Made by a program: the position numbers and the translations under genes. DNA of 62,670 nt, counting the filler, from Thermodesulfobacteriota bacterium (GTDB lineage: Bacteria; DASVDK01): NCBI GenBank assembly GCA_036381125.1. It is 6 parts of 6 records of this genome, joined end to end, with 100 filler letters (N's around TTAATTAATTAA, not from the genome) between each part and the next. Parts side by side here need not be neighbours in the genome. Positions count along the whole stretch, not along the records: positions 20,996 to 28,978 come from DASVDK010000342.1; 5 more parts are not named here. The stretch is one strand, 5' to 3'. The notes beneath the pieces were generated by a model that saw only the letters and a list, made by a program, of their open reading frames with translations, did not search any database and was not told where the DNA came from. How positions within the stretch are numbered: the first letter of the stretch is position 1; the number at the start of each line of letters is the position of its first letter. This document shows positions 20,896-56,708 of the stretch, one piece after another.

Positions 20896-20995
20896 NNNNN
20901 NNNNNNNNNNNNNNNNNNNNNNNNNNNNNNNNNNNNNNNTTAATTAATTAANNNNNNNNNNNNNNNNNNNNNNNNNNNNNNNNNNNNNNNNNNNN
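20896..20995. other. Artificial contig spacer
   Basis: N-run with TTAATTAATTAA (stops in all frames). Confidence 0.99.
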
Positions 20996-20996
20996 C

Positions 20997-21191
20997 CGTC
21001 GGCTCTACGCGACCGCGCTCGACGAGAACCGGGGCGGCTTCTCGCGCACCGGCCGCATCGACCCGCGCGCCGTCGACACCGTCGTCGCGACCTACCGGAC
21101 CTCGGGCGCGATTGCGCCGTCGCAGGCCGTCGACACGACCGTCCTCTACGACAACCGCTTCGTCGACCAGGCGCTGGCCGAGGAGCGGTAG
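20997..21191 (+). CDS. 3' end of probable SsuA/NMT1-type ABC substrate-binding protein (partial)
   Basis: Frame reads 'RRLYATALDENRGGFSRTGRIDPRAVD...VLYDNRFVDQALAEER*'; C-terminal YDNRFV is typical of the family. Confidence 0.5.
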   Translation, partial: RRLYATALDENRGGFSRTGRIDPRAVDTVVATYRTSGAIAPSQAVDTTVLYDNRFVDQALAEER

Positions 21192-21211
21192 TCCCCGATC
21201 GGGAGCACGCC

Positions 21212-22600
21212 ATGGATCATCGCGTCCGGATCGCCTTCGCCACCTGCGGCCCCACGGTGAACCGCCTCGAGCCGGTGAAGGCCCGCTTCGCCAGCGTCGC
21301 CGAGATCCTCCCCTTCCCCGCCGCCAACGACGGCAGCGACGCCGACGCCCTGGTTCCCGCGCTGAGGCGCGCGGCGCCCCACGCGGTCGTCGCCTTCCCG
21401 AAGGTGGCCGAGCGGCTCCTCCGCACAGGGCTCGCGGTGCCGGTCTTCCCGATGGAGATGCCGGCCGACGTGCTGGTCGGCCGCGTGACCGAGGCGCTCG
21501 AGCGCGCCGACTCGGTTGGGGTCCTGCCGCCGGCCGGCACGATCGCCCCCTCGACCTGCCGGCTGCTCAGGCGACTCGGCGGCGCGGTCCACATCCTGCC
21601 GTACGAGAACCACGACCACCTGCGCGACCTCGTCGCCCGCTGCCGACGCATGGGGATCCGCGCGCTCGTCGGCGGCGAGAGCCTGAAGGGCATCGCCGAG
21701 CCGCAGGGGCTTCGTCCCTTCTCGCTGGCGGACGAGGCCGACGAGGCGGCCGGCGCCATGGGCCAGGCGGTGATCAGGGCCGCCTCGCAGGCCGCACCGC
21801 GTCACGCGCCCCGCGGCGAGGCGCTGGCGCGCTACGGGCTCATCCTCGAGAAGATCGCCCAGGGAGCCATCGGTCCCGACGACCTCACGCTCTGCGTCGA
21901 TGACGGCGGCCGGGTCACGGCGGCCTTCGCCTCCCCGTGGGCCACCGGCGCCGGACGCGCCCTCGCGCCCGCGCGGCCCGGCGCCCTCTCGGTCCTCGAG
22001 GCCGTGACCACCGCGGCGGCCGTGGCGACGAGCGAGCCGGGCGAGTCGGTCTCCCCGGTCGCCCTCGACCTCTACCCCCTGGCCCCCGGCGACGGCGGCG
22101 GCTACCTGGCCGTCGTCCGCAGCTCGCGCCGGCCGGTCGCCGCCCTCCCGGCCGGCCCGGCCCCGCTCGCCGCCGACCCGGCGGCAGGCGACCTGCTCGC
22201 CCGTCTCGACACCCTGATCGCCCGCCTCGACACGCTCGTCCGCGCGAGGCGCGGCCGCCACGCCCCTCGCCGCTTCCTCGCCTCGCTGCGCCGGCGCACC
22301 TTCCTGATCGACTGGAGGCGGGTCCGCTACTTCGAGCTGCGTGCGGGACTGGTGTACGCCTCGCTGGTCACGGGCGAGACCTACGCGACCAACTACACCC
22401 TGGCCGACCTCGCCGCCCGGGTCGACGGGCGCGACTTCTTCCGCATCCACCGCCACGTCCTGGTCAACCTCAACTACGTCACGGAGCTGGAGCGCTACGG
22501 GGTGAGCCAGTTCCGCGTGGTCCTCGAGGGGCCCGACACCCCCGCCTTCGTCGTCAGCCGACCCGCCTCGGCCGCCCTCCGCAAGCTCCTCAAGTACTGA
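21212..22600 (+). CDS. LytTR-domain regulator with PrpR_N-like N-terminus and degenerate PAS-like linker
   Basis: C-terminal 'TLADLAARVDGRDFFRIHRHVLVNL...VSR'; N-terminal 'AVVA..VAERL...VPVFPME...MGIRALVGG' resembles PrpR_N; no REC acidic pocket seen. Confidence 0.75.
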   Translation: MDHRVRIAFATCGPTVNRLEPVKARFASVAEILPFPAANDGSDADALVPALRRAAPHAVVAFPKVAERLLRTGLAVPVFPMEMPADVLVGRVTEALERADSVGVLPPAGTIAPSTCRLLRRLGGAVHILPYENHDHLRDLVARCRRMGIRALVGGESLKGIAEPQGLRPFSLADEADEAAGAMGQAVIRAASQAAPRHAPRGEALARYGLILEKIAQGAIGPDDLTLCVDDGGRVTAAFASPWATGAGRALAPARPGALSVLEAVTTAAAVATSEPGESVSPVALDLYPLAPGDGGGYLAVVRSSRRPVAALPAGPAPLAADPAAGDLLARLDTLIARLDTLVRARRGRHAPRRFLASLRRRTFLIDWRRVRYFELRAGLVYASLVTGETYATNYTLADLAARVDGRDFFRIHRHVLVNLNYVTELERYGVSQFRVVLEGPDTPAFVVSRPASAALRKLLKY

Positions 22601-22610
22601 CGCTACTGAC

Positions 22611-22650
22611 GCTGCGGGACCCCGCTCGAGGGGTCCCGCGGCTTCCTTCC
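22611..22650 (+). terminator. GC hairpin after the first LytTR gene
   Basis: GCTGCGGGACCCC-GCTCGA-GGGGTCCCGCGGC followed by TTCCTTCC. Confidence 0.55.
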
Positions 22651-22819
22651 GGTCTGCTCACGCTCACCTTCCGCGCTCGCGGCCGCACGCGGCGCGAGCG
22701 CCCCGTCACGTCGCGCCTTCGGCAATGTGCTTCCGATTCGTCCGCACCCCACGTCCGGATCAGGCCGACGGCATGGGGCCGAGCCCCATGAACGACCGCC
22801 CTTGCGGCCGCGCCGGATC

Positions 22820-22849
22820 CGCATCGCCGCTTCATCCGCCTGCCCCGTC
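22820..22849 (+). promoter_or_regulatory. Conserved upstream motif CGCATCG-N10-CGCCTGCCCCGTC (copy A)
   Basis: Same two blocks and spacing recur on the minus strand at 24681-24710. Confidence 0.6.
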
Positions 22850-22875
22850 CGTCAGGGCTTTGCGGTCGCGGCGTC

Positions 22876-23505
22876 ATGGGGCAGGCTGGGGTCATGGTGA
22901 ACGGCGTGGAACTCGATCGACATGCGGCGACCGGAGACCTCGTGGTCCAGGTGGGCCCCGACGGCCGGGTCGCGTGGAGCGGCGGGGGCTCGCGCCTGGC
23001 CGGCCCCGCCCGCGGGACGGCCTTCCTCGAGTGGCTCGCGACGGCGCCCCCGGTGGTGGTCGCGGTCCGGCGCGACCCGGGCGGGGGGCTGCTCCTGACC
23101 GTACGGCCCGCCGGGCCTTCCGACACGCCGTCCGGCGAGCCGGCGGCCGCCCGCCGGACAGCCGGCGTCCCGAGGCGCCTCGTCGGCTTCAAGCGGAAGC
23201 GGACCTTCCTCTTCGACCCGTCGCGCGCCCTCGCCTTCGAGCTGCGCTCCGGCCTCGTCCACGCCTCCCTCGACGACGGCGAGAGCCTCGCGACGAACTA
23301 CTCGGTGCGCGAACTCACCGCACGCCTCGCGCCGCTCGGCTTCTTCCGCGTCCACCGCGACGTGATCGTGAACCTCAGGCGGGTGAGGGAGATCGAGCGG
23401 GTCGGCCAGGGGCGGGTGCGCCTCGTCCTCGACACGCCCGACGCGCACGGCTTCACCGTGAGCCGCCCCGCCTCCGCCCGCCTGCGGCGCCTCCTCCGCT
23501 TCTGA
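22876..23505 (+). CDS. Short LytTR-domain regulator (paralog of 21212-22600)
   Basis: 'FELRSGLVHASL..GESLATNYSVREL...FFRVHRDVIVNL...VSRPASARLRRLLRF'. Confidence 0.75.
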   Translation: MGQAGVMVNGVELDRHAATGDLVVQVGPDGRVAWSGGGSRLAGPARGTAFLEWLATAPPVVVAVRRDPGGGLLLTVRPAGPSDTPSGEPAAARRTAGVPRRLVGFKRKRTFLFDPSRALAFELRSGLVHASLDDGESLATNYSVRELTARLAPLGFFRVHRDVIVNLRRVREIERVGQGRVRLVLDTPDAHGFTVSRPASARLRRLLRF

Positions 23506-23511
23506 CCGCGC

Positions 23512-24576
23512 CTACCACCCCATCGCCGCCCGGAGCCGCCGCCCGACGTCGCGGCTGAGCACCAGCTCGGTCTTGGCGGCGTCCGCAAAGAGGAGCCGGT
23601 AGCGCTGGTGGGTCCAGGGGATCAGCTCCCCGATCCGCGTGAGGTTGACCAGGTGCGACTGGTCGAGCCTGAGGAACCGGCTCGCGTCGAGCCGCCGCTC
23701 GAGCTCCGCCAGGGTCTGGTTCGTCCAGTACCGTCCGCCGTCGGCGAAGGCCGTCACGACGCCGCCGAGCGAGGAGACGTAGACGATGCTCGCCTGGGGC
23801 ACGAGGACGAAGCGCCGGCCGGTTCGGAGCGCGACCACCTCCGGCGTCCCGGCCTCGTCGGGCCGCGGGGTTCCGGCCGGGAGCGCGCGACAGGTCGCAT
23901 GACCGTGGGCCGCCTCCGCGCCGAGGTGCGCCACCTGCCGCAGGCGCGCCAGGACGGCGCGCGACAGGACCCGCTCGACCGCGTGAACGACGGCGCACCC
24001 GCCCGACAGCTCGAGGCACGACTGCGCGGCAAGGCCCATGCCGCCGGCGATCGGGACGGCGGCCGGCTCGGTCAGGACCGACGCGACGCCGGCGCGCCGC
24101 GCGACGGCGAGCTGGGAGTGGAGGTGGTCGGCCGAGAGGAACGGCAGGTAGGCGTACCGATCGGGATGCTCGAGCATCGCGGCGGCGAGCACCGGCGAGA
24201 CGGCGGCCGGACGGAGCACGACCGCACCCGGCCCCTCGGCCGCTCGCCGCGGCGACGCGAGCAGACAGGCCGGCTCGATGACCACCGGCACGACGTGCGC
24301 GGGGCCGAGCGCCGGCTCGACCCCCCGGTGGCCGGGCGGAACGACGACGGCGTCCGGCCCCTCGACCCTGAGCCGCTCGACGACGCCGGGGGTGAGGGCG
24401 CTCTCCGGCTCCTCCAGGTGCGCCTCGGGCCGCTGCGACTCCGTCTCGCAGGCGACGACGAGCAGGTCGGCCAGGCCCGTGTAGCGGCGCGCGACCTCGG
24501 CCGCCGGCCCGGTGAAGTAGCGGCACCCCGCGACGGCGAGCCGGAGCCGTCCCGGGTGCGGCTCCCCGTCGCTCAC
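23512..24576 (-). CDS. LytTR-domain regulator with divergent PrpR_N-like N-terminus
   Basis: 'TLAELERRLDASRFLRLDQSHLVNL...ELIPW...LSRDVGRRLRAAMGW'. Confidence 0.75.
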   Translation of the reverse strand: MSDGEPHPGRLRLAVAGCRYFTGPAAEVARRYTGLADLLVVACETESQRPEAHLEEPESALTPGVVERLRVEGPDAVVVPPGHRGVEPALGPAHVVPVVIEPACLLASPRRAAEGPGAVVLRPAAVSPVLAAAMLEHPDRYAYLPFLSADHLHSQLAVARRAGVASVLTEPAAVPIAGGMGLAAQSCLELSGGCAVVHAVERVLSRAVLARLRQVAHLGAEAAHGHATCRALPAGTPRPDEAGTPEVVALRTGRRFVLVPQASIVYVSSLGGVVTAFADGGRYWTNQTLAELERRLDASRFLRLDQSHLVNLTRIGELIPWTHQRYRLLFADAAKTELVLSRDVGRRLRAAMGW

Positions 24577-24680
24577 CCGACGCCCGGATCACGGCGCGGT
24601 GCGCGGGCGTCCCGCACGACGACCCGCGCCGCCTGGCTGAAACGTCGCTTGCGCCCCATCGCGCACGATACAACCACCCC

Positions 24681-24710
24681 GACGGGGCAGGCGCAGACGG
24701 TTTCGATGCG
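24681..24710 (-). promoter_or_regulatory. Conserved upstream motif CGCATCG-N10-CGCCTGCCCCGTC (copy B), followed by -10-like TATCGT
   Basis: + strand GACGGGGCAGGCG-N10-CGATGCG; ACGATA at 24665-24670. Confidence 0.6.
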
Positions 24711-24819
24711 TTGCGGAGGCCGCGAACGGGCGACGCGGACGGCCGCGGACGCGATCCGCCGGCCGACGGGCCGATTCGCCGGCGCCGGGCCGCCCGGTTC
24801 GGAAGCCCGGACCGGACGC

Positions 24820-25947
24820 TCACCACCCGAGGATCGCGCGCAGGCGGCGGCCGACGTCGCGGCTGAGCACCAGCTCGGTGTTGGCGGCGTCGTCGAGGCG
24901 CAGCTTGTAGCGCTGGTGCGTCCAGGGGATGAGCTCGACGACCCGTGCCACGTTCACCAGGCGCGAGGCGTCGAGGCGGACGAAGCGCCGCGGGTCGAGC
25001 CGCGACTCGACCTCGGCGAGCGTGCGGTCGGACCAGAAGCTGCCGCGGTCGGTGTACGCGGTCACGAGGCCGCCCCGGGAGCTGATGTAGCTGATGCTGG
25101 CCGCCGGCACGAGGACGAAGCGCCGCGCGGTCCTGAGCGCGACGACGTCCCGAACCGGGTCGGGCCGGCGACCCGCCGGGTGCGACGGCGGCCAGCCCGA
25201 CGGCGCGGCCCAGGAGCCGGGCGCGGCCGCGGGGCCGTGCGCGAGGCCGGACAGGCGGGCGAGGCTCGCCTGGGCGAGGCCGCGCTCGAGGGCGTGGACG
25301 ACGAGGCAGCGGCCGGCGCCGTCGTAGATGGACCGGGCCTCGAGCCCCCGCCGGCGCGCGAGCGCCGCCGCGGCGGGATCGGCGAGGACGGGCGCGAGCC
25401 TCGATCGCGCGACGAGGTCGAGCTGGGCATGGAGGTGCTCGGCGCCGAGGTAGGTGAGGAGGACGGCGTCCGCAGCCTCGCGCGGCCACGCGGCGACAAG
25501 CAGGCGCGGGACGGCGTCGGCCGGCAGCACGAGCGCGGGGGTCGTACCCGGCCGCCGGGCCTCGCGCAGGAGCTCGACGACGCACGACGGCGCCAGCTCG
25601 ATCCGGACGACCGGCGGCTCGGCGGGGACGGGCGCGTGAGGGGCGGGCGGCAGCAGGACGGCGTCGGCGTGCCGCATCGCCTCGGCCGCGTGCGGCGGCG
25701 CGCCGCCCGGGGCCTCGTCGACGTGGCCGTCGAGGTCGTGCGGAGCGACGTCGCAGTGGACGACCTCGAACGTCGCGAGCCCGCGGTAGCCGTCCAGAAC
25801 GGGATCGACGCTCTCGGTGAGGAGCCGGCAGCCGACGACGAGCAGGCGAAGCGCGCGCGGTCCCGGCGGCGGCGCGACCGGCATCGGCGAGCCGGCCTCG
25901 CACACCAGCGAGGCGGCGAGCGCGGCCGAGCACCGCCAGGCCCCCAT
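24820..25947 (-). CDS. LytTR-domain regulator with divergent PrpR_N-like N-terminus (paralog of 23512-24576; alternative start 25884)
   Basis: 'TLAEVESRLDPRRFVRLDASRLVNV...ELIPWTHQRY...LSRDVGRRLRAILGW'; ATG overlaps the ImmA TGA (TGATG). Confidence 0.75.
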   Translation of the reverse strand: MGAWRCSAALAASLVCEAGSPMPVAPPPGPRALRLLVVGCRLLTESVDPVLDGYRGLATFEVVHCDVAPHDLDGHVDEAPGGAPPHAAEAMRHADAVLLPPAPHAPVPAEPPVVRIELAPSCVVELLREARRPGTTPALVLPADAVPRLLVAAWPREAADAVLLTYLGAEHLHAQLDLVARSRLAPVLADPAAAALARRRGLEARSIYDGAGRCLVVHALERGLAQASLARLSGLAHGPAAAPGSWAAPSGWPPSHPAGRRPDPVRDVVALRTARRFVLVPAASISYISSRGGLVTAYTDRGSFWSDRTLAEVESRLDPRRFVRLDASRLVNVARVVELIPWTHQRYKLRLDDAANTELVLSRDVGRRLRAILGW

Positions 25948-26630
25948 CAGTCCCCCCAGAGCCTGCCCTGGCGGCCGTCGGCCGGCTCTCGCAGGCAGCC
26001 GAGCTGGCCGAGGCGGACGGCAGCGGCCTCGGGCGAGACGCCGAAGGCGCGGGCGACGCGGTCGACGAGCCGGTCCCCCTCGCGCGTCCCGGCAAAGGGC
26101 GGGCGACCGCGGACGCGGACCCGAGGGGCCGGCACGAGGAGGGCCGCGGCCAGGTAGCCGGCCTGCCACTCGAGCCAGCCGACGGGGTCCTCGAGCGTCC
26201 GGCTGTGCGCCGCCTCGATCCGCGGCGCGACGTCGGGCAGGAGCGCCGGCTCGGCGAAGCGGCGGTCCCACAGCTCCCGGTGGAGGACCACGTGGGCCAG
26301 CTCGTGAGCCAGGGTGAAGCGGAGGCGGACCTCTCGCCGTGGGTCACCGGCGAGGCGCCGCTCGACGCGGACGATCGGCGCGACCCCGGGCCGGAACTCG
26401 GTCACCGCCTCGACGCCCGGCCCGAACTCCGCCTCGAGGTCGGCGTACAGGTCGAGGTCGCCCGCGTGCGCCTCGACGAGGACGAGGAGGGCGTCGGTGT
26501 CGAGCCGGCCGGTCCCGGCCCGGCGGCGGGTCCCCTCCCTCGCGAGCGCCGCGCCGAGGGCGTCGAGTTCGGCCGCCTCGTAGAAGGGCCTGGCCGGGAA
26601 GCGGCCGGAGGGATCGTCGATCCACCTCAC
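25947..26630 (-). CDS. ImmA/IrrE-family Zn metallo-endopeptidase
   Basis: 'RLRFTLAHELAH' (HExxH), 'EWQAGYLAAALLVP', C-terminal HTH 'VARAFGVSPEAAAVRL'; GTG overlaps XRE stop. Confidence 0.88.
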   Translation of the reverse strand: MRWIDDPSGRFPARPFYEAAELDALGAALAREGTRRRAGTGRLDTDALLVLVEAHAGDLDLYADLEAEFGPGVEAVTEFRPGVAPIVRVERRLAGDPRREVRLRFTLAHELAHVVLHRELWDRRFAEPALLPDVAPRIEAAHSRTLEDPVGWLEWQAGYLAAALLVPAPRVRVRGRPPFAGTREGDRLVDRVARAFGVSPEAAAVRLGQLGCLREPADGRQGRLWGD

Positions 26631-27040
26631 GACCGGCGCTCCCGCCTCCGTCCCGGTGACGGATCGGCGGACGCGAGCAGCCGCGTCCAGTCCTCGCGGG
26701 TCCACCCGCAGGCGCGGGCGCGGCGGAAGAGACGCCCCACCGGCTCGGCCGCCTCGGGACGCTCGCGCAGGTAGTCGACGACCGGCGCCGCGCCCCGGCC
26801 GGCCGCCGCCTCGATCGACGTGAGCGACAGTCCGAGCGCGGCCGCCAGCTCCGCGGCGAGCGCCGACGACGGCCGGCGCCGATCGTGCTCGATGTCGTTG
26901 ATGTACTGTGGCGAGACGCCCCGCGGCCGGTTCCCCCCGGCCGTGAGGCGCGCGCCGAGCTCGCGCAGGCTCAGCCCCCGCGCCCGGCGTGCCGTCGACA
27001 CGAGCCGCCCGAGCGACGGCTCCCCTCGCTTGCCGCCCAT
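26627..27040 (-). CDS. XRE-family HTH regulator (ImmR-like)
   Basis: 'ARRARGLSLRELG...VSPQYINDIEHDRRRPS'. Confidence 0.88.
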   Translation of the reverse strand: MGGKRGEPSLGRLVSTARRARGLSLRELGARLTAGGNRPRGVSPQYINDIEHDRRRPSSALAAELAAALGLSLTSIEAAAGRGAAPVVDYLRERPEAAEPVGRLFRRARACGWTREDWTRLLASADPSPGRRRERRS

Positions 27041-27095
27041 GCAGGTGTACCCTCCGCCTGCGGACGAGCGTATACCTGCACGTTCGAGCAGTCAA
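27040..27095 (-). promoter_or_regulatory. sigma70 promoter TTGACT-N17-TACGCT with GGAGG RBS, overlapped by an 11-bp inverted repeat (candidate XRE operator)
   Basis: -35 27090-27095, -10 27067-27072; TGCAGGTGTAC (27040-27050) / GTATACCTGCA (27070-27080), one mismatch. Confidence 0.65.
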
Positions 27096-27973
27096 GAGGC
27101 GAGGAACTCGATCAGCCGTCTCGCGTGTCCCGGCAGCGCATCGAAGCGGCGCACGCAGATGGTCAGGCGCCGCACCGCCCACGGGTCCGTGAGCCGCACG
27201 ACCCGGATCCGCATCGACCTCCGGTACCGGCGCGCGGCCACCTCGGGGACGATCGCCACGCCGACGCCCCGCTCCGCCATCCGGCAGACGGCGTCGAAGC
27301 CACGCACGCGGACCCGCACCTTGAGCGGCCGACCGGCGCTCGCGGCCTGCGCGTCGAGGTAGGCCTGCAGCGCGCTGCCGGTGCCGAGGCCGACGACGTC
27401 GTGGTCGAGCACCTCGCGGAAGGCGCGCGGCGGCCCGGCCGCGAGCGGGTGGGCCGGCGCGGCGACGACGACCAACCGGTCCGCGCGGAAGGGGAACGTC
27501 TCGAGGCCGGTGAGGTCCACGGAATCGGCCGCGACGCCGGCGTCGGCGATGCCCTCGGCGACGGCCCGCGCGATCTCCCGGCTCGGCCGCTCCTCGAGCT
27601 GGACGTCGACGTCGGGATGGGCGGCGAGGTAGCGGGCCAGCGCGCCGGGCAGGAACTCGGCCACCGCGGCGGTGTTGGCGAGGAGGCGGACCCGGCCCTT
27701 CAGGCCGCGCGCGTACTCGCCGATCTCGCCGCGCATCCGCTCGACCTGCTCGAGGAGCGTCCGCGCATGGCGCGCCAGCGCCTGGCCGGCCGGCGTCGTC
27801 CGCACGCCGCGGGACCCCCGCTCGAGCAGCGCGACGCCGAGCGACGCCTCCATGCCGCGGATGCGCGCGCTCGCCGCGGCCAGCGACAGGCCGGCTCGCC
27901 CGGCGCCGTGCGTGATGCTGCCGGCCTCGGTCACCTCGAGGAACAGGCGCAGGTCGGTCAGGTCTATGGACAT
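27092..27973 (-). CDS. LysR-family transcriptional regulator
   Basis: 'DLTDLRLF..V.EAGSIT.GA...LSLAAASARIRGME'. Confidence 0.92.
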   Translation of the reverse strand: MSIDLTDLRLFLEVTEAGSITHGAGRAGLSLAAASARIRGMEASLGVALLERGSRGVRTTPAGQALARHARTLLEQVERMRGEIGEYARGLKGRVRLLANTAAVAEFLPGALARYLAAHPDVDVQLEERPSREIARAVAEGIADAGVAADSVDLTGLETFPFRADRLVVVAAPAHPLAAGPPRAFREVLDHDVVGLGTGSALQAYLDAQAASAGRPLKVRVRVRGFDAVCRMAERGVGVAIVPEVAARRYRRSMRIRVVRLTDPWAVRRLTICVRRFDALPGHARRLIEFLAS

Positions 27974-27999
27974 CGGCCGCTCGCTCGGGTCACTCGCCC

Positions 28000-28020
28000 G
28001 CCTTCGTCCCGGCCGAAGGC
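28000..28020. promoter_or_regulatory. LysR recognition box (T-N11-A palindrome)
   Basis: GCCTTCG-N7-CGAAGGC between divergent lysR and tauE-like genes. Confidence 0.7.
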
Positions 28021-28075
28021 AGGCTCGACGACTGCCGCATTGTCCTTCGCCGCGGAGGCGGGCAGCATCGGGGGC

Positions 28076-28819
28076 ATGTCCGACGCGCTCCCACTCCTGG
28101 TCGCCGTCGCCTCCACGTTCCTCGTCGCCGGGGTCGTGAAGGGCGTGATCGGGCTCGGGCTGCCCACGGTGGCGATCGGCCTCCTCGGCCTGTACATGCC
28201 GCCGGCCGAGGCGGCCTCGCTCCTCGTCGCGCCGTCGCTCGTGACCAACCTCTGGCAGCTCGCCGCGCGTCCCGTCGCGCCGCTCCTCGGCCGCCTCTGG
28301 TCGATGATGCTCGGGATCTGTCTCGGGACGTGGGCCGGCTCCGGGCTCCTGGCCACGGACGAAAGCGGCCGCGCCGCCACGGCGCTCGGCGTCGTCCTGG
28401 CGCTCTACGCCGTAGCCGGGCTCGCGTCGGTGCGTCCCCGCGTCCCGCCACGCGCGGAGCCCTGGCTCTCGCCCCTGGTCGGCGCCGCCACGGGTCTCGT
28501 GACCGCGGCGACAGGGGTCTTCGTGGTCCCGGCCGTCCCGTACCTCGAGGCGCTCGGGCTGCAGAAGGAGGACCTGGTGCAGGCGCTCGGCCTCTCGTTC
28601 ACGGTCTCGACCCTCGCGCTGGCCGTCGGACTCGCCCGCGACGGGGTGCTCGACGCCTCGCTGGCCGGCGGCTCGGTCCTCGCGCTCGCGCCCGCCCTGG
28701 CCGGGATGTCGCTCGGCCGGCAGCTCAGGGCCCGGGCGAACCCGCGCGTCTTCCGGCTCTGCTTCTTCCTCGGCCTCCTGGTCCTCGGGGCCCACCTCGC
28801 CCTGCGGCGCGCGGTCTGA
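28076..28819 (+). CDS. TauE/SafE-family (sulfite exporter-like) membrane protein
   Basis: 'AGVVKGVIGLGLPT', about 8 TM helices. Confidence 0.85.
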   Translation: MSDALPLLVAVASTFLVAGVVKGVIGLGLPTVAIGLLGLYMPPAEAASLLVAPSLVTNLWQLAARPVAPLLGRLWSMMLGICLGTWAGSGLLATDESGRAATALGVVLALYAVAGLASVRPRVPPRAEPWLSPLVGAATGLVTAATGVFVVPAVPYLEALGLQKEDLVQALGLSFTVSTLALAVGLARDGVLDASLAGGSVLALAPALAGMSLGRQLRARANPRVFRLCFFLGLLVLGAHLALRRAV

Positions 28820-28978
28820 AGCGCGGCGCGTCAGTCCACGACGCCCGCCTGGAGGAGGGCTCGCACCTCCGAGACGGTGCAGCAGGCGACGGCGCGCCGC
28901 AAAAGCTCGGCGCACCGGTCGCGCCTGAGCCCGCCGAGGGCGCGCTTCACGCGCGGGATCGCCGCGGCCGCCATGGAC

Positions 28979-29078
28979 NNNNNNNNNNNNNNNNNNNNNN
29001 NNNNNNNNNNNNNNNNNNNNNNTTAATTAATTAANNNNNNNNNNNNNNNNNNNNNNNNNNNNNNNNNNNNNNNNNNNN
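28979..29078. other. Artificial contig spacer
   Basis: N-run with TTAATTAATTAA. Confidence 0.99.
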
Positions 29079-35216: not shown

Positions 35217-35316
35217 NNNNNNNNNNNNNNNNNNNNNNNNNNNNNNNNNNNNNNNNNNNNTTAATTAATTAANNNNNNNNNNNNNNNNNNNNNNNNNNNN
35301 NNNNNNNNNNNNNNNN
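35217..35316. other. Artificial contig spacer
   Basis: N-run with TTAATTAATTAA. Confidence 0.99.
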
Positions 35317-42494: not shown

Positions 42495-42594
42495 NNNNNN
42501 NNNNNNNNNNNNNNNNNNNNNNNNNNNNNNNNNNNNNNTTAATTAATTAANNNNNNNNNNNNNNNNNNNNNNNNNNNNNNNNNNNNNNNNNNNN
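42495..42594. other. Artificial contig spacer
   Basis: N-run with TTAATTAATTAA. Confidence 0.99.
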
Positions 42595-56608: not shown

Positions 56609-56708
56609 NNNNNNNNNNNNNNNNNNNNNNNNNNNNNNNNNNNNNNNNNNNNTTAATTAATTAANNNNNNNNNNNNNNNNNNNNNNNNNNNNNNNNNNNN
56701 NNNNNNNN
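56609..56708. other. Artificial contig spacer
   Basis: N-run with TTAATTAATTAA. Confidence 0.99.

Follow-up and report, generated by a model that had tools for sequence, protein, structure and literature searches.

Organisation of the locus

The DNA analysed here, referred to as the window, is a stretch of 62,670 nucleotides, filler included, from a Thermodesulfobacteriota bacterium (GenBank assembly GCA_036381125.1). It consists of contigs joined by spacers of N44, 12 bases and N44 (20896-20995, 28979-29078, 35217-35316, 42495-42594 and 56609-56708), and genes across a spacer are not genomic neighbours. Our subject is a group of four genes, A to D, whose genuine neighbourhood is only the 7983-bp contig at 20996-28978 (DASVDK010000342.1; GC about 72-78%). 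All four encode a LytTR domain, and in A, C and D this output is joined to an N-terminal sensor predicted to have the PrpR_N fold, an architecture proposed in an earlier note on this DNA and upheld here. The assembly comprises 4.33 Mb in 382 contigs, with an estimated completeness of 96%. Its source lineage is isolated, with almost no sequenced kin among the 60 genomes compared; one of these, a metagenome-assembled genome hereafter called the sister genome, belongs to the same genus, and the other 59 are related at domain level only. The genes and their domains are as follows.

21212..22600, plus strand: gene A, 462 aa, with PrpR_N, a PAS-like middle domain, a long helix and LytTR
21221..21802, plus strand: PrpR_N domain of A, residues 4-197 (Pfam, profile, Foldseek and VIA-align)
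21818..22126, plus strand: PAS-like middle domain of A, residues 203-305 (assignment tentative)
22178..22252, plus strand: long linker helix of A before LytTR, residues 323-347 (DSSP of the model, low confidence, predicted local distance difference test (pLDDT) 45-53)
22265..22594, plus strand: LytTR domain of A, residues 352-461 (PF04397, E 1.8e-16)
22876..23505, plus strand: gene B, 209 aa (203 aa from 22894), with a PAS-like domain and LytTR, lacking PrpR_N
23512..24576, minus strand: gene C, 354 aa, with a divergent PrpR_N-fold domain, a disordered linker and LytTR
23947..24549, minus strand: PrpR_N-fold domain of C, residues 10-210 (predicted)
23515..23844, minus strand: LytTR domain of C, residues 245-354 (PF04397, E 2.4e-17)
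24820..25947, minus strand: gene D, 375 aa, a paralogue 46% identical to C and built like it, with 21 aa added at the N-terminus
25252..25857, minus strand: putative PrpR_N-fold domain of D, residues ~31-232, with the same four Cys (alignment with C)
24829..25122, minus strand: LytTR domain of D, residues 276-373 (PF04397, E 7.3e-17)

The four open reading frames (ORFs) are present as the earlier note described them, and the motifs that it quoted occur in their translations. A to D are real genes, given their full-length homologues, the dN/dS values of A and B, and the colinear contigs found in relatives. Judging from the homologues P0170 and P0171, B more likely starts at 22894, and the start of D agrees with that of its orthologue P0013. 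Residues 1-21 of D (25885-25947, minus strand) form a hydrophobic extension, MG.WR...LAASLVCEA.SP, which is common to D and P0013 and absent from C-type proteins. Its resemblance to a signal sequence or lipobox is unexpected in a protein that binds DNA, and D may have been called from the wrong start.

LytTR output domains

Among the output domains through which bacterial regulators bind DNA, LytTR is the main one that is not a helix-turn-helix. Using hmmscan we found it (PF04397) in all four proteins, as had been claimed, at 51.6-63.4 bits (E 1.1e-13 to 2.4e-17) against a curated cut-off of 22.6 bits; the match in B covers residues 109-207 (E 1.1e-13). A genome-wide search returned exactly four LytTR matches in this 96%-complete genome, all on the A-D contig. 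The LytTR parts of the models of A and C superpose in VIA-align on 3d6w (Z 17.2, root-mean-square deviation (rmsd) 1.6, and Z 16.1, rmsd 2.0, respectively) and on AgrA 3bs1 (Z 12.3 and 11.9).

The same hmmscan runs gave no match in any of A-D to Response_reg (PF00072), and none to either PF00158 (Sigma54_activat) or HTH_8. With no receiver, no AAA+ domain and a cytoplasmic location, the proteins have the one-component layout that had been suggested, in which LytTR has taken the place of the AAA+ and helix-turn-helix output. The outgroup LytTR proteins are ordinary in this respect and A-D are not, because all 20 of the longest LytTR ORFs scanned from 80 metagenome loci combine Response_reg with LytTR.

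The PrpR_N domain of A

The first ~190 residues of A had been read as PrpR_N from their sequence pattern, and the family profile, Foldseek and VIA-align agree in matching them to 2pju and 2q5c. Of the Pfam scans, which are clear for LytTR in all four proteins, that for PrpR_N is borderline in A and weak in D. Against PF06506 (gathering score 29.1 bits) residues 68-187 of A score 27.9 bits (E 2.1e-6) in hmmscan. In a six-frame search of the genome the same region reaches 29.9 bits, above the cut-off, and A is the sole PrpR_N match.

Homologues of A fall into 11 clusters among 5.8 billion proteins. Precomputed annotation assigns PF06506 together with PF04397 to 7 of the 11 and PF06506 alone to one fragment, and one member of the family is named 'LytTR family DNA-binding domain-containing protein'. 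The combination of PrpR_N with LytTR is therefore already implicit in databases through precomputed Pfam annotation; a full-text literature search found no paper pairing PrpR_N or PrpR with LytTR. The family alignment (A2) was built from nine of the 11 clusters, leaving out the fragment P0009 and the odd P0011. Eight of its nine members match PrpR_N at E <= 0.1, the best at 8.1e-8, and the A2 profile searched against the PDB finds the N-domain of E. coli PrpR, 2pju, with E 6.2e-7 over profile positions 6-195. P0011 (401 aa, outside the window) has an A-type LytTR segment, 69% identical over 17% of A, together with a weak PrpR_N match (E 0.0011) and a partial LytTR; it may be an architectural variant or a broken gene.

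The AlphaFold model of A has a mean pLDDT of 73.6, with 77-92 in the N-domain; like the model of C described below it was built on a shallow alignment (9 and 12 sequences, respectively). Foldseek places 2pju first (E 4.4e-9), followed by 2q5c (E 1.2e-6). VIA-align ranks the same two structures at Z 15.9 (rmsd 3.6, 183 aligned) and Z 15.7, and its next tier, made up of periplasmic-binding-protein and LacI folds, reaches Z <= 10.4. The two-lobed alpha/beta fold of 2pju and 2q5c is thus found in the predicted models of both A and C. In the A family, lobe 2 contains five invariant arginines (R117, R120, R121, R143 and R146), which are unmatched in the aligned 2pju sequence. They would fit the binding of an anionic small molecule, which is probably what A does.

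A divergent PrpR_N fold in C and D

The minus-strand pair had been described as carrying a more divergent version of the domain, and this is borne out by profile-to-profile matches of the C and D N-domains to that of A and by the match of the C model to 2pju. Pfam PrpR_N is reached by D at E 0.15 only, and neither C nor B gives a match in hmmscan. A HMMER scan of 1.84 billion representatives with C returned 1617 proteins. Among the 150 matches listed, only P0012 and P0013 align from the N-terminus, and the others start at residue 97 or later, which is the LytTR part. A search restricted to the N-domain of C found nine more 90%-identity clusters, and the resulting alignment (A3) holds 12 sequences, C, D and P0013 included.

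When the alignments were compared with hhalign over the N-domains only, C/D and A matched with 98.3% probability (E 1.6e-14, 186 columns, 24% identity). The model of C has a pLDDT of 79.4. Apart from LytTR structures, Foldseek matches it best to 2pju (E 4e-7, TMt 0.71-0.78), which thus leads the non-LytTR matches for the predicted N-domains of A and C alike. In VIA-align 2pju comes top overall (Z 16.8, rmsd 2.4, 179 aligned) and 2q5c follows at Z 13.4; the next fold that is neither LytTR nor PrpR_N scores Z 9.2. The ESM Atlas holds a C model of its own, for which all ten nearest clusters carry PrpR_N (TM by query 0.63-0.72 over ~190 residues); the ten comprise nine sigma-54 activators and one stand-alone PrpR_N cluster. 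For D the assignment to the PrpR_N fold is made through its alignment with C (46% identity) and is accordingly a putative one.

Conserved cysteines and a predicted dimer

All 12 C/D-family sequences of alignment A3 share four invariant cysteines (C18, C43, C104 and C194), and nine of the 12 N-domains contain exactly four. H53, E56, H151, H198 and E201 are invariant in the same 12 sequences. H53 and E56 lie inside a 12-residue insertion ('...PEAHLEEPE...') that is missing from the A family, which retains only the first cysteine (7 of 9 members) and commonly shares H151 (8 of 9). The cysteines are spaced ~25, 61 and 90 residues apart, and in the secondary structure of the C model each either directly follows a strand or stands at the beginning of the next helix. 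In the model they would thus be placed where two-lobed alpha/beta folds bind ligands in the cleft. The four cysteines and the private His/Glu loop suggest a metal, Fe-S or thiol site, not an organic-acid pocket.

C also has second-tier structural neighbours that differ from those of A, namely two-thiol Asp/Glu racemases (Z 8.1-9.2) and the class II chelatases CbiK, CbiX and SirB (Z 7.3-8.9 in VIA-align). We take these as a lead only, as they may reflect just the shared two-lobed arrangement.

A homodimer of C residues 1-222, predicted with alignment A3, scored 0.43, a value reached by 20 of 30 solved homodimers and by one of 23 single chains; the best of three controls scored 0.00. Three runs gave 0.45, 0.03 and 0.43, with a contact agreement of at least 97% and a partner pLDDT of at least 81. 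The predicted symmetric interface is formed by the lobe-2 helix 149-161, including the invariant H151, Q155 and R161. The prediction supports a dimer of C formed through its sensor domain; it may also reflect likeness to solved PrpR_N crystals, 2pju being a multi-chain crystal.

The middle domain and gene B

Residues ~203-305 of A are homologous to the N-terminal ~100 residues of B, the short paralogue in which the earlier note saw only 'LVVQVGPDGRV' retained; B has just the middle domain of A and LytTR. The N-terminal part of B has only two matching clusters, one of which is B itself. In a search of 1649 ORFs from the retrieved loci, a hidden Markov model of the middle domain matched only A and B of the sister genome.

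The motif 'LCVDDGGRV' had been taken as the start of a PAS domain. This stretch can indeed be aligned with the first hairpin of genuine PAS domains, but the assignment as a whole is weak, with no match to a PAS family in Pfam or in PDB profiles. Searched at E <= 10, A 196-348, B 1-105 and the middle domain from the sister genome gave no Pfam family, and none of nine full-length A-family members has a Pfam PAS match at E <= 0.1. A profile of ten middle domains (A4) found no PAS chain in the PDB, the best match being 3pl5 at E 0.09. DSSP gives the middle domain of the A model the order helix, two strands, two helices, two strands, at pLDDT 49-79. We then have the comparison with 40 PAS_4/PAS matches from the same genome, to which hhalign aligns A4 weakly (19.4% probability, score 23.6) yet colinearly over 102 columns, 30 column-shuffled controls scoring <= 14.4. 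In this alignment 'D..LCVD..GRV' falls on the A/B hairpin of PAS and 'PL....G.GYL.V.R' on its H/I hairpin. Atlas neighbours of the middle domain are PAS-LytTR and PrpR_N-PAS clusters (feature score 0.87, a lead only; TM 0.35-0.45). Only D27, G36, V38, V86, G100 and R106 are invariant among the middle-domain columns. We regard the domain as probably a degenerate PAS-like fold, with appreciable room for doubt.

The PAS domain of RcoM holds its heme through axial His and Met ligands. Such conserved ligands are not found in the middle domain of A and B, whose alignment has no invariant His, Cys or Met able to hold heme.

Evolution, rarity and conservation

A tree of LytTR domains was computed from 68 rows, comprising 23 family members and the first 45 of 95 eligible outside proteins; P0009 (no LytTR domain), P0011 (LytTR part too short) and the fragments P0014-P0023 were left out. 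A and B form a clade with a Shimodaira-Hasegawa-like approximate likelihood ratio test (SH-aLRT) support of 100, and C and D one with 99. Forcing the 23 family members into one clade costs 5.3 log-likelihood units and is not rejected (approximately unbiased test, p-AU 0.30). Duplication followed by divergence, as the earlier note envisaged for the locus, is thus supported pairwise, for A/B and for C/D, but a fusion ancestral to all four is not recovered, the two clades not being joined. B looks like an A-type gene minus its PrpR_N domain. A single ancestral fusion for all four is possible, and a shared origin of A and C/D is favoured because their N-domains are more similar to each other than either is to classical PrpR.

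Both families are rare, with ~10 clusters each in 5.8 billion proteins (nine for the N-domain family of C). Metagenome contigs yielded no relatives with the A-family query, and with the C-family query the best 80 of 122 relatives match the LytTR part only, from query residue 161. Among genome contigs only the sister genome and one unrelated response regulator matched, and viral contigs gave no relatives. A is present in one of the 60 relative genomes, that of the same genus. There both A and B are seen and C/D are not; the sister contig ends just after B. Compared with the sister orthologues, A has a dN/dS of 0.41 and B one of 0.23. The order of the solute-binding protein (SBP) gene, A and B is kept, with an A-B spacer 87% identical.

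Nineteen sequencing runs hold 9-15% of sampled words. Copies near-identical to the A-D contig, or 91-94% identical to it, were recovered from runs X2, X5, X3 and X20. Relative contigs from run X2 (mangrove) are colinear with 21000-22570 (the SBP gene and A), with 22667-25170 (B, C and the last part of D) and with 25233-28900 (D, M78, XRE, LysR and TauE), and they differ from the window by ~6-9%; run X5 (soil) shows the same pattern. Run X3 (sludge) contains short contigs only. In X20, a compost RNA library, contigs of 223-493 nt cover parts of every gene, which may be DNA carry-over and so is no proof of transcription.

Neighbouring genes and regulatory DNA

The remainder of the contig carries the following genes.

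20997..21191, plus strand: 3' end of an NMT1/THI5-like (SsuA-family-like) SBP gene, cut by the contig end, its stop 20 nt before the ATG of A
25947..26642, minus strand: M78 (ImmA/IrrE, CapP-like) metallopeptidase gene, start uncertain (PF06114, E 1.5e-10)
26627..27040, minus strand: XRE-type helix-turn-helix (CapH-like) gene, upstream of the M78 gene (PF01381, E 3.1e-9)
27092..28018, minus strand: LysR-family regulator (PF03466, 2.6e-43; PF00126, 6.9e-16; no NCBIfam model above cut-off)
28085..28819, plus strand: TauE/SafE-family anion (sulfite-type) exporter, divergent from the LysR gene (PF01925, E 5.5e-25)

The 64 aa encoded by the SBP gene end are 94% identical to the C-terminus of a 350-aa protein upstream of A in the sister genome, which matches PF09084 (3e-25) and scores 93 bits against SsuA_fam, below the cut-off of 163.5. 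The XRE and M78 genes share the orientation of D, and the TGA of the M78 gene overlaps the ATG of D by one base (TGATG). In PADLOC these adjoining genes match both models of the CapH/CapP pair (capH 4.3e-7, capP 7.8e-14). The LytTR proteins A to D gave no PADLOC match. The order D-M78-XRE is kept in the related X2 and X5 contigs. Across the genome we counted 24 sigma-54 AAA+ matches, none on the A-D contig, and 15 MmgE/PrpD-family matches, both unusually high numbers for a genome of 4.3 Mb.

In the regulatory DNA of the locus there is no Rfam match, and no sigma-70-like promoter or terminator consensus was found. A passage of PMC11347149 describes LytTR operators as direct repeats of 8-9 bp, 10-13 bp apart. 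The D-C spacer (24727-24794, minus strand) contains the direct repeats GCCGGCGAATCG and GCCGGCGGATCG, 20 bp apart, and CGTCCGCGGCC and CGTTCGCGGCC, 23 bp apart. They amount to nine overlapping matches at a LytTR-like spacing, against a mean of 0.8 and a maximum of 8 in shuffled sequence. No repeats with a 21-bp period were detected in the A-B, XRE-LysR and LysR-TauE spacers, and the A-D locus showed none of the triple 8-bp direct repeats known for RcoM and CoxC.

The upstream regions of B and C have a 30-nt element in common (22820-22849, plus strand, and 24681-24710, minus strand; 73% identical), which contains an exact GCCTGCCCCGTC and lies 21-26 nt before an ATGGGGC start. Taken alone, this 12-mer carries no weight: it occurs five times in the genome against ~6.7 expected and is not rare in the window.

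Upstream of C, a 28-codon ORF (24573-24659, minus strand) opens with an ATG at 24659, and its TGA overlaps the GTG start of C (GTGA). This ORF may encode a coupled leader peptide or may have arisen by chance in GC-rich DNA. Sixteen nucleotides past the stop of A lies a perfect 8-bp GC hairpin, GGGACCCC ... GGGGTCCC (22616-22637, plus strand), of which the stem is kept and the loop changed in the sister genome, with no T-run after it. It may be a terminator or an RNA element between A and B.

Discussion

The best explanation of the locus, to which we assign a probability of about 72%, is that it encodes four paralogous cytoplasmic one-component transcription regulators, in which a ligand-sensing module occupies the place of the phospho-receiver in front of a LytTR output. 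Starting from domain identities, predicted folds, N-domain homology, rarity and gene order in close relatives, we infer how these proteins are gated by ligands and of what classes, how they work as dimers and what DNA they target, as follows. A would receive its input through a two-lobed, periplasmic-binding-protein-like PrpR_N domain followed by a small PAS-like domain and a long helix, and B would have retained the PAS-like domain and helix alone. In C and D a strongly diverged PrpR_N-fold domain would be tied to LytTR by a disordered linker. By analogy with PrpR, RcoM and CoxC the sensor module may dimerise; once the cleft between the lobes is occupied, the pair of LytTR domains would be presented differently, which would change their binding to direct-repeat operators. 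The ligand of A would probably be an anionic small molecule, in keeping with the invariant lobe-2 arginines. C and D probably sense something different through the four invariant cysteines and the His/Glu loop, possibly a metal ion, an Fe-S cluster or thiol chemistry.

Several points weigh against this reading. Its basis is wholly computational. The hmmscan score of A stands at 27.9 bits, just below the Pfam PrpR_N cut-off of 29.1; C has no Pfam PrpR_N match, and the C-family profile finds only LytTR in the PDB. Of the five models built for each of A and C only the best is good (pLDDT 73.6 and 79.4), the others lying at 59-67, and one of the three dimer runs of C scored only 0.03. Arginine is common in 73%-GC genomes, which makes the anion-binding argument weaker. 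H151 belongs to the predicted dimer interface and also occurs in the A family, so that it is probably no metal ligand. In the LytTR tree the A/B and C/D clades are not joined, with a backbone support of 55, and no convincing LytTR operator was found.

Known regulators provide partial precedents. To our knowledge, LytTR domains are known almost entirely from phosphorylated response regulators, and RcoM and CoxC are the only sensor-fused types to have been characterised. Regulators of the LytR/AlgR/AgrA/ComE type have a similar LytTR domain, and the nearest outside sequences are of this type, but A-D lack a receiver and no partner histidine kinase is present on the contig. The part of PMC11347149 that treats RcoM (heme PAS-LytTR) and CoxC (MHYT-LytTR) presents both as one-component LytTR sensors of CO. 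The logic would be the same here, with a sensor fused straight to LytTR and no phosphorylation, and the PAS-LytTR layout of RcoM is resembled by B and by the C-terminal two thirds of A. The sensor of A, C and D, however, is of the predicted PrpR_N fold and, unlike that of CoxC, soluble.

The N-terminal fold itself is that of the PrpR-type sigma-54 activators (2pju, E. coli PrpR; 2q5c, a Clostridium NtrC-family regulator), with which the models of A and C share it. Fragments in the Atlas clusters show that a PAS-type domain following PrpR_N is also common in that group. PrpR-type activators carry AAA+ and HTH_8 domains, whereas A, C and D carry LytTR, so that no sigma-54 would be involved. That PrpR_N otherwise sits on sigma-54 activators, as the earlier note had stated, agrees with nine of the ten nearest Atlas clusters of C and with the portion of PMC6615313 that lists PrpR_N among the regulatory domains of these activators. 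Identity to PrpR is 12-18%, and the Cys4/His/Glu signature of C and D is absent from the aligned 2pju sequence and from A.

A different account ties the locus to organosulfonates and sulfite: A would sense the substrate of the SsuA-like transporter, and the Cys-rich C and D sulfite or the redox state of sulfur. In its favour, both this genome and the sister genome have an SsuA-like SBP gene that ends 20 nt ahead of A, and the TauE/SafE exporter and its LysR partner are on the same contig, in an order kept in relatives. Yet the SBP falls below its SsuA_fam threshold (93 against 163.5 bits), NMT1-type SBPs and TauE-family exporters carry many substrates, and no sulfonate enzyme lies on the contig. 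The order, moreover, is conserved only in relatives that are at least 91% identical and hence is not independent evidence. We regard such a link as rather unlikely, though worth keeping in mind.

The cysteines of C and D might instead play no part in sensing, forming a structural Zn(Cys)4 site or being thiols left over from a racemase- or isomerase-like ancestor. The two-thiol racemases and the chelatases among the second-tier neighbours of C would be in keeping with this. A purely structural site would not need the His/Glu loop that is private to C/D, however, and the spacing of the cysteines and their predicted ligand-binding positions in the fold also argue against it; the proposal seems unlikely to us.

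The earlier note had favoured organic-acid sensing for the whole group. In Salmonella, 2-methylcitrate is the ligand and co-activator of PrpR, acting through PrpR_N, and by extension all the proteins of the locus would sense 2-methylcitrate-like organic acids. The PrpR_N homology of A and its invariant lobe-2 arginines are compatible with this, and the 15 MmgE/PrpD matches imply that tricarboxylate-type chemistry is abundant in the organism. But the proteins are only 12-18% identical to the PrpR N-domain, those arginines have no counterpart in the 2pju alignment, no prp or MmgE/PrpD gene lies on the contig, and in C and D pocket residues are replaced by Cys and His. Because of the Cys4 signature, which A and PrpR lack, the signal of C and D would be of a different kind. 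Organic-acid sensing is therefore an analogy only, and as a description of all the proteins we hold it to be distinctly improbable.

C and D could also belong to a stress or conflict module under the CapH/CapP-like XRE and M78 pair and not be metabolic sensors at all. The capH and capP matches in the two genes upstream of D, their shared orientation, the M78 stop overlapping the D start and the order kept in the X2 and X5 contigs all fit such a module. XRE/M78 pairs nevertheless accompany very many unrelated genes, and the association here is seen only in close relatives. The genes downstream are transcription factors and the contig carries no known defence effector; none of the four LytTR proteins is recognised by PADLOC and none has relatives in viral contigs, so that we give this explanation little credence. 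Least credible, to the point of being negligible, is that the N-domains are degenerate receivers of ordinary LytR/AlgR response regulators, for although the nearest outside LytTR domains belong to response regulators and full-length ComE is among the Foldseek and VIA matches of C, the ComE match has an rmsd of 14.5-18 and rests on the LytTR part, A-D give no Response_reg match, and the N-domain has ~200 residues in two lobes that fit 2pju at rmsd 2.4 over 179 residues.

Returning to the four one-component regulators, the Cys4 sensor of C and D is the most interesting point of the locus. We raise, as a tentative possibility that is more likely to fail than to hold, that the PrpR_N fold of C and D has been turned from a metabolite pocket into a metal or Fe-S site formed by the four cysteines, with the His/Glu loop. 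C and D would then be one-component LytTR regulators that sense redox state or metals, a class not described before. In this lineage they would be expressed behind a CapH/CapP-like stress switch, and together with the metabolite-type A and the PAS-only B they would make up the whole LytTR repertoire of the organism.

The A and C/D families are tiny and confined to uncultured bacteria, which sets practical limits. A predicted PrpR_N-fold sensor on LytTR would mean that an input module usually associated with sigma-54 activators can drive a quite different output, which is relevant to communication between sensor and output domains and to the construction of chimeric biosensors. If it is true that the four cysteines of C and D bind a metal or cluster, this would be new sensory chemistry for both the LytTR and the PrpR_N families.

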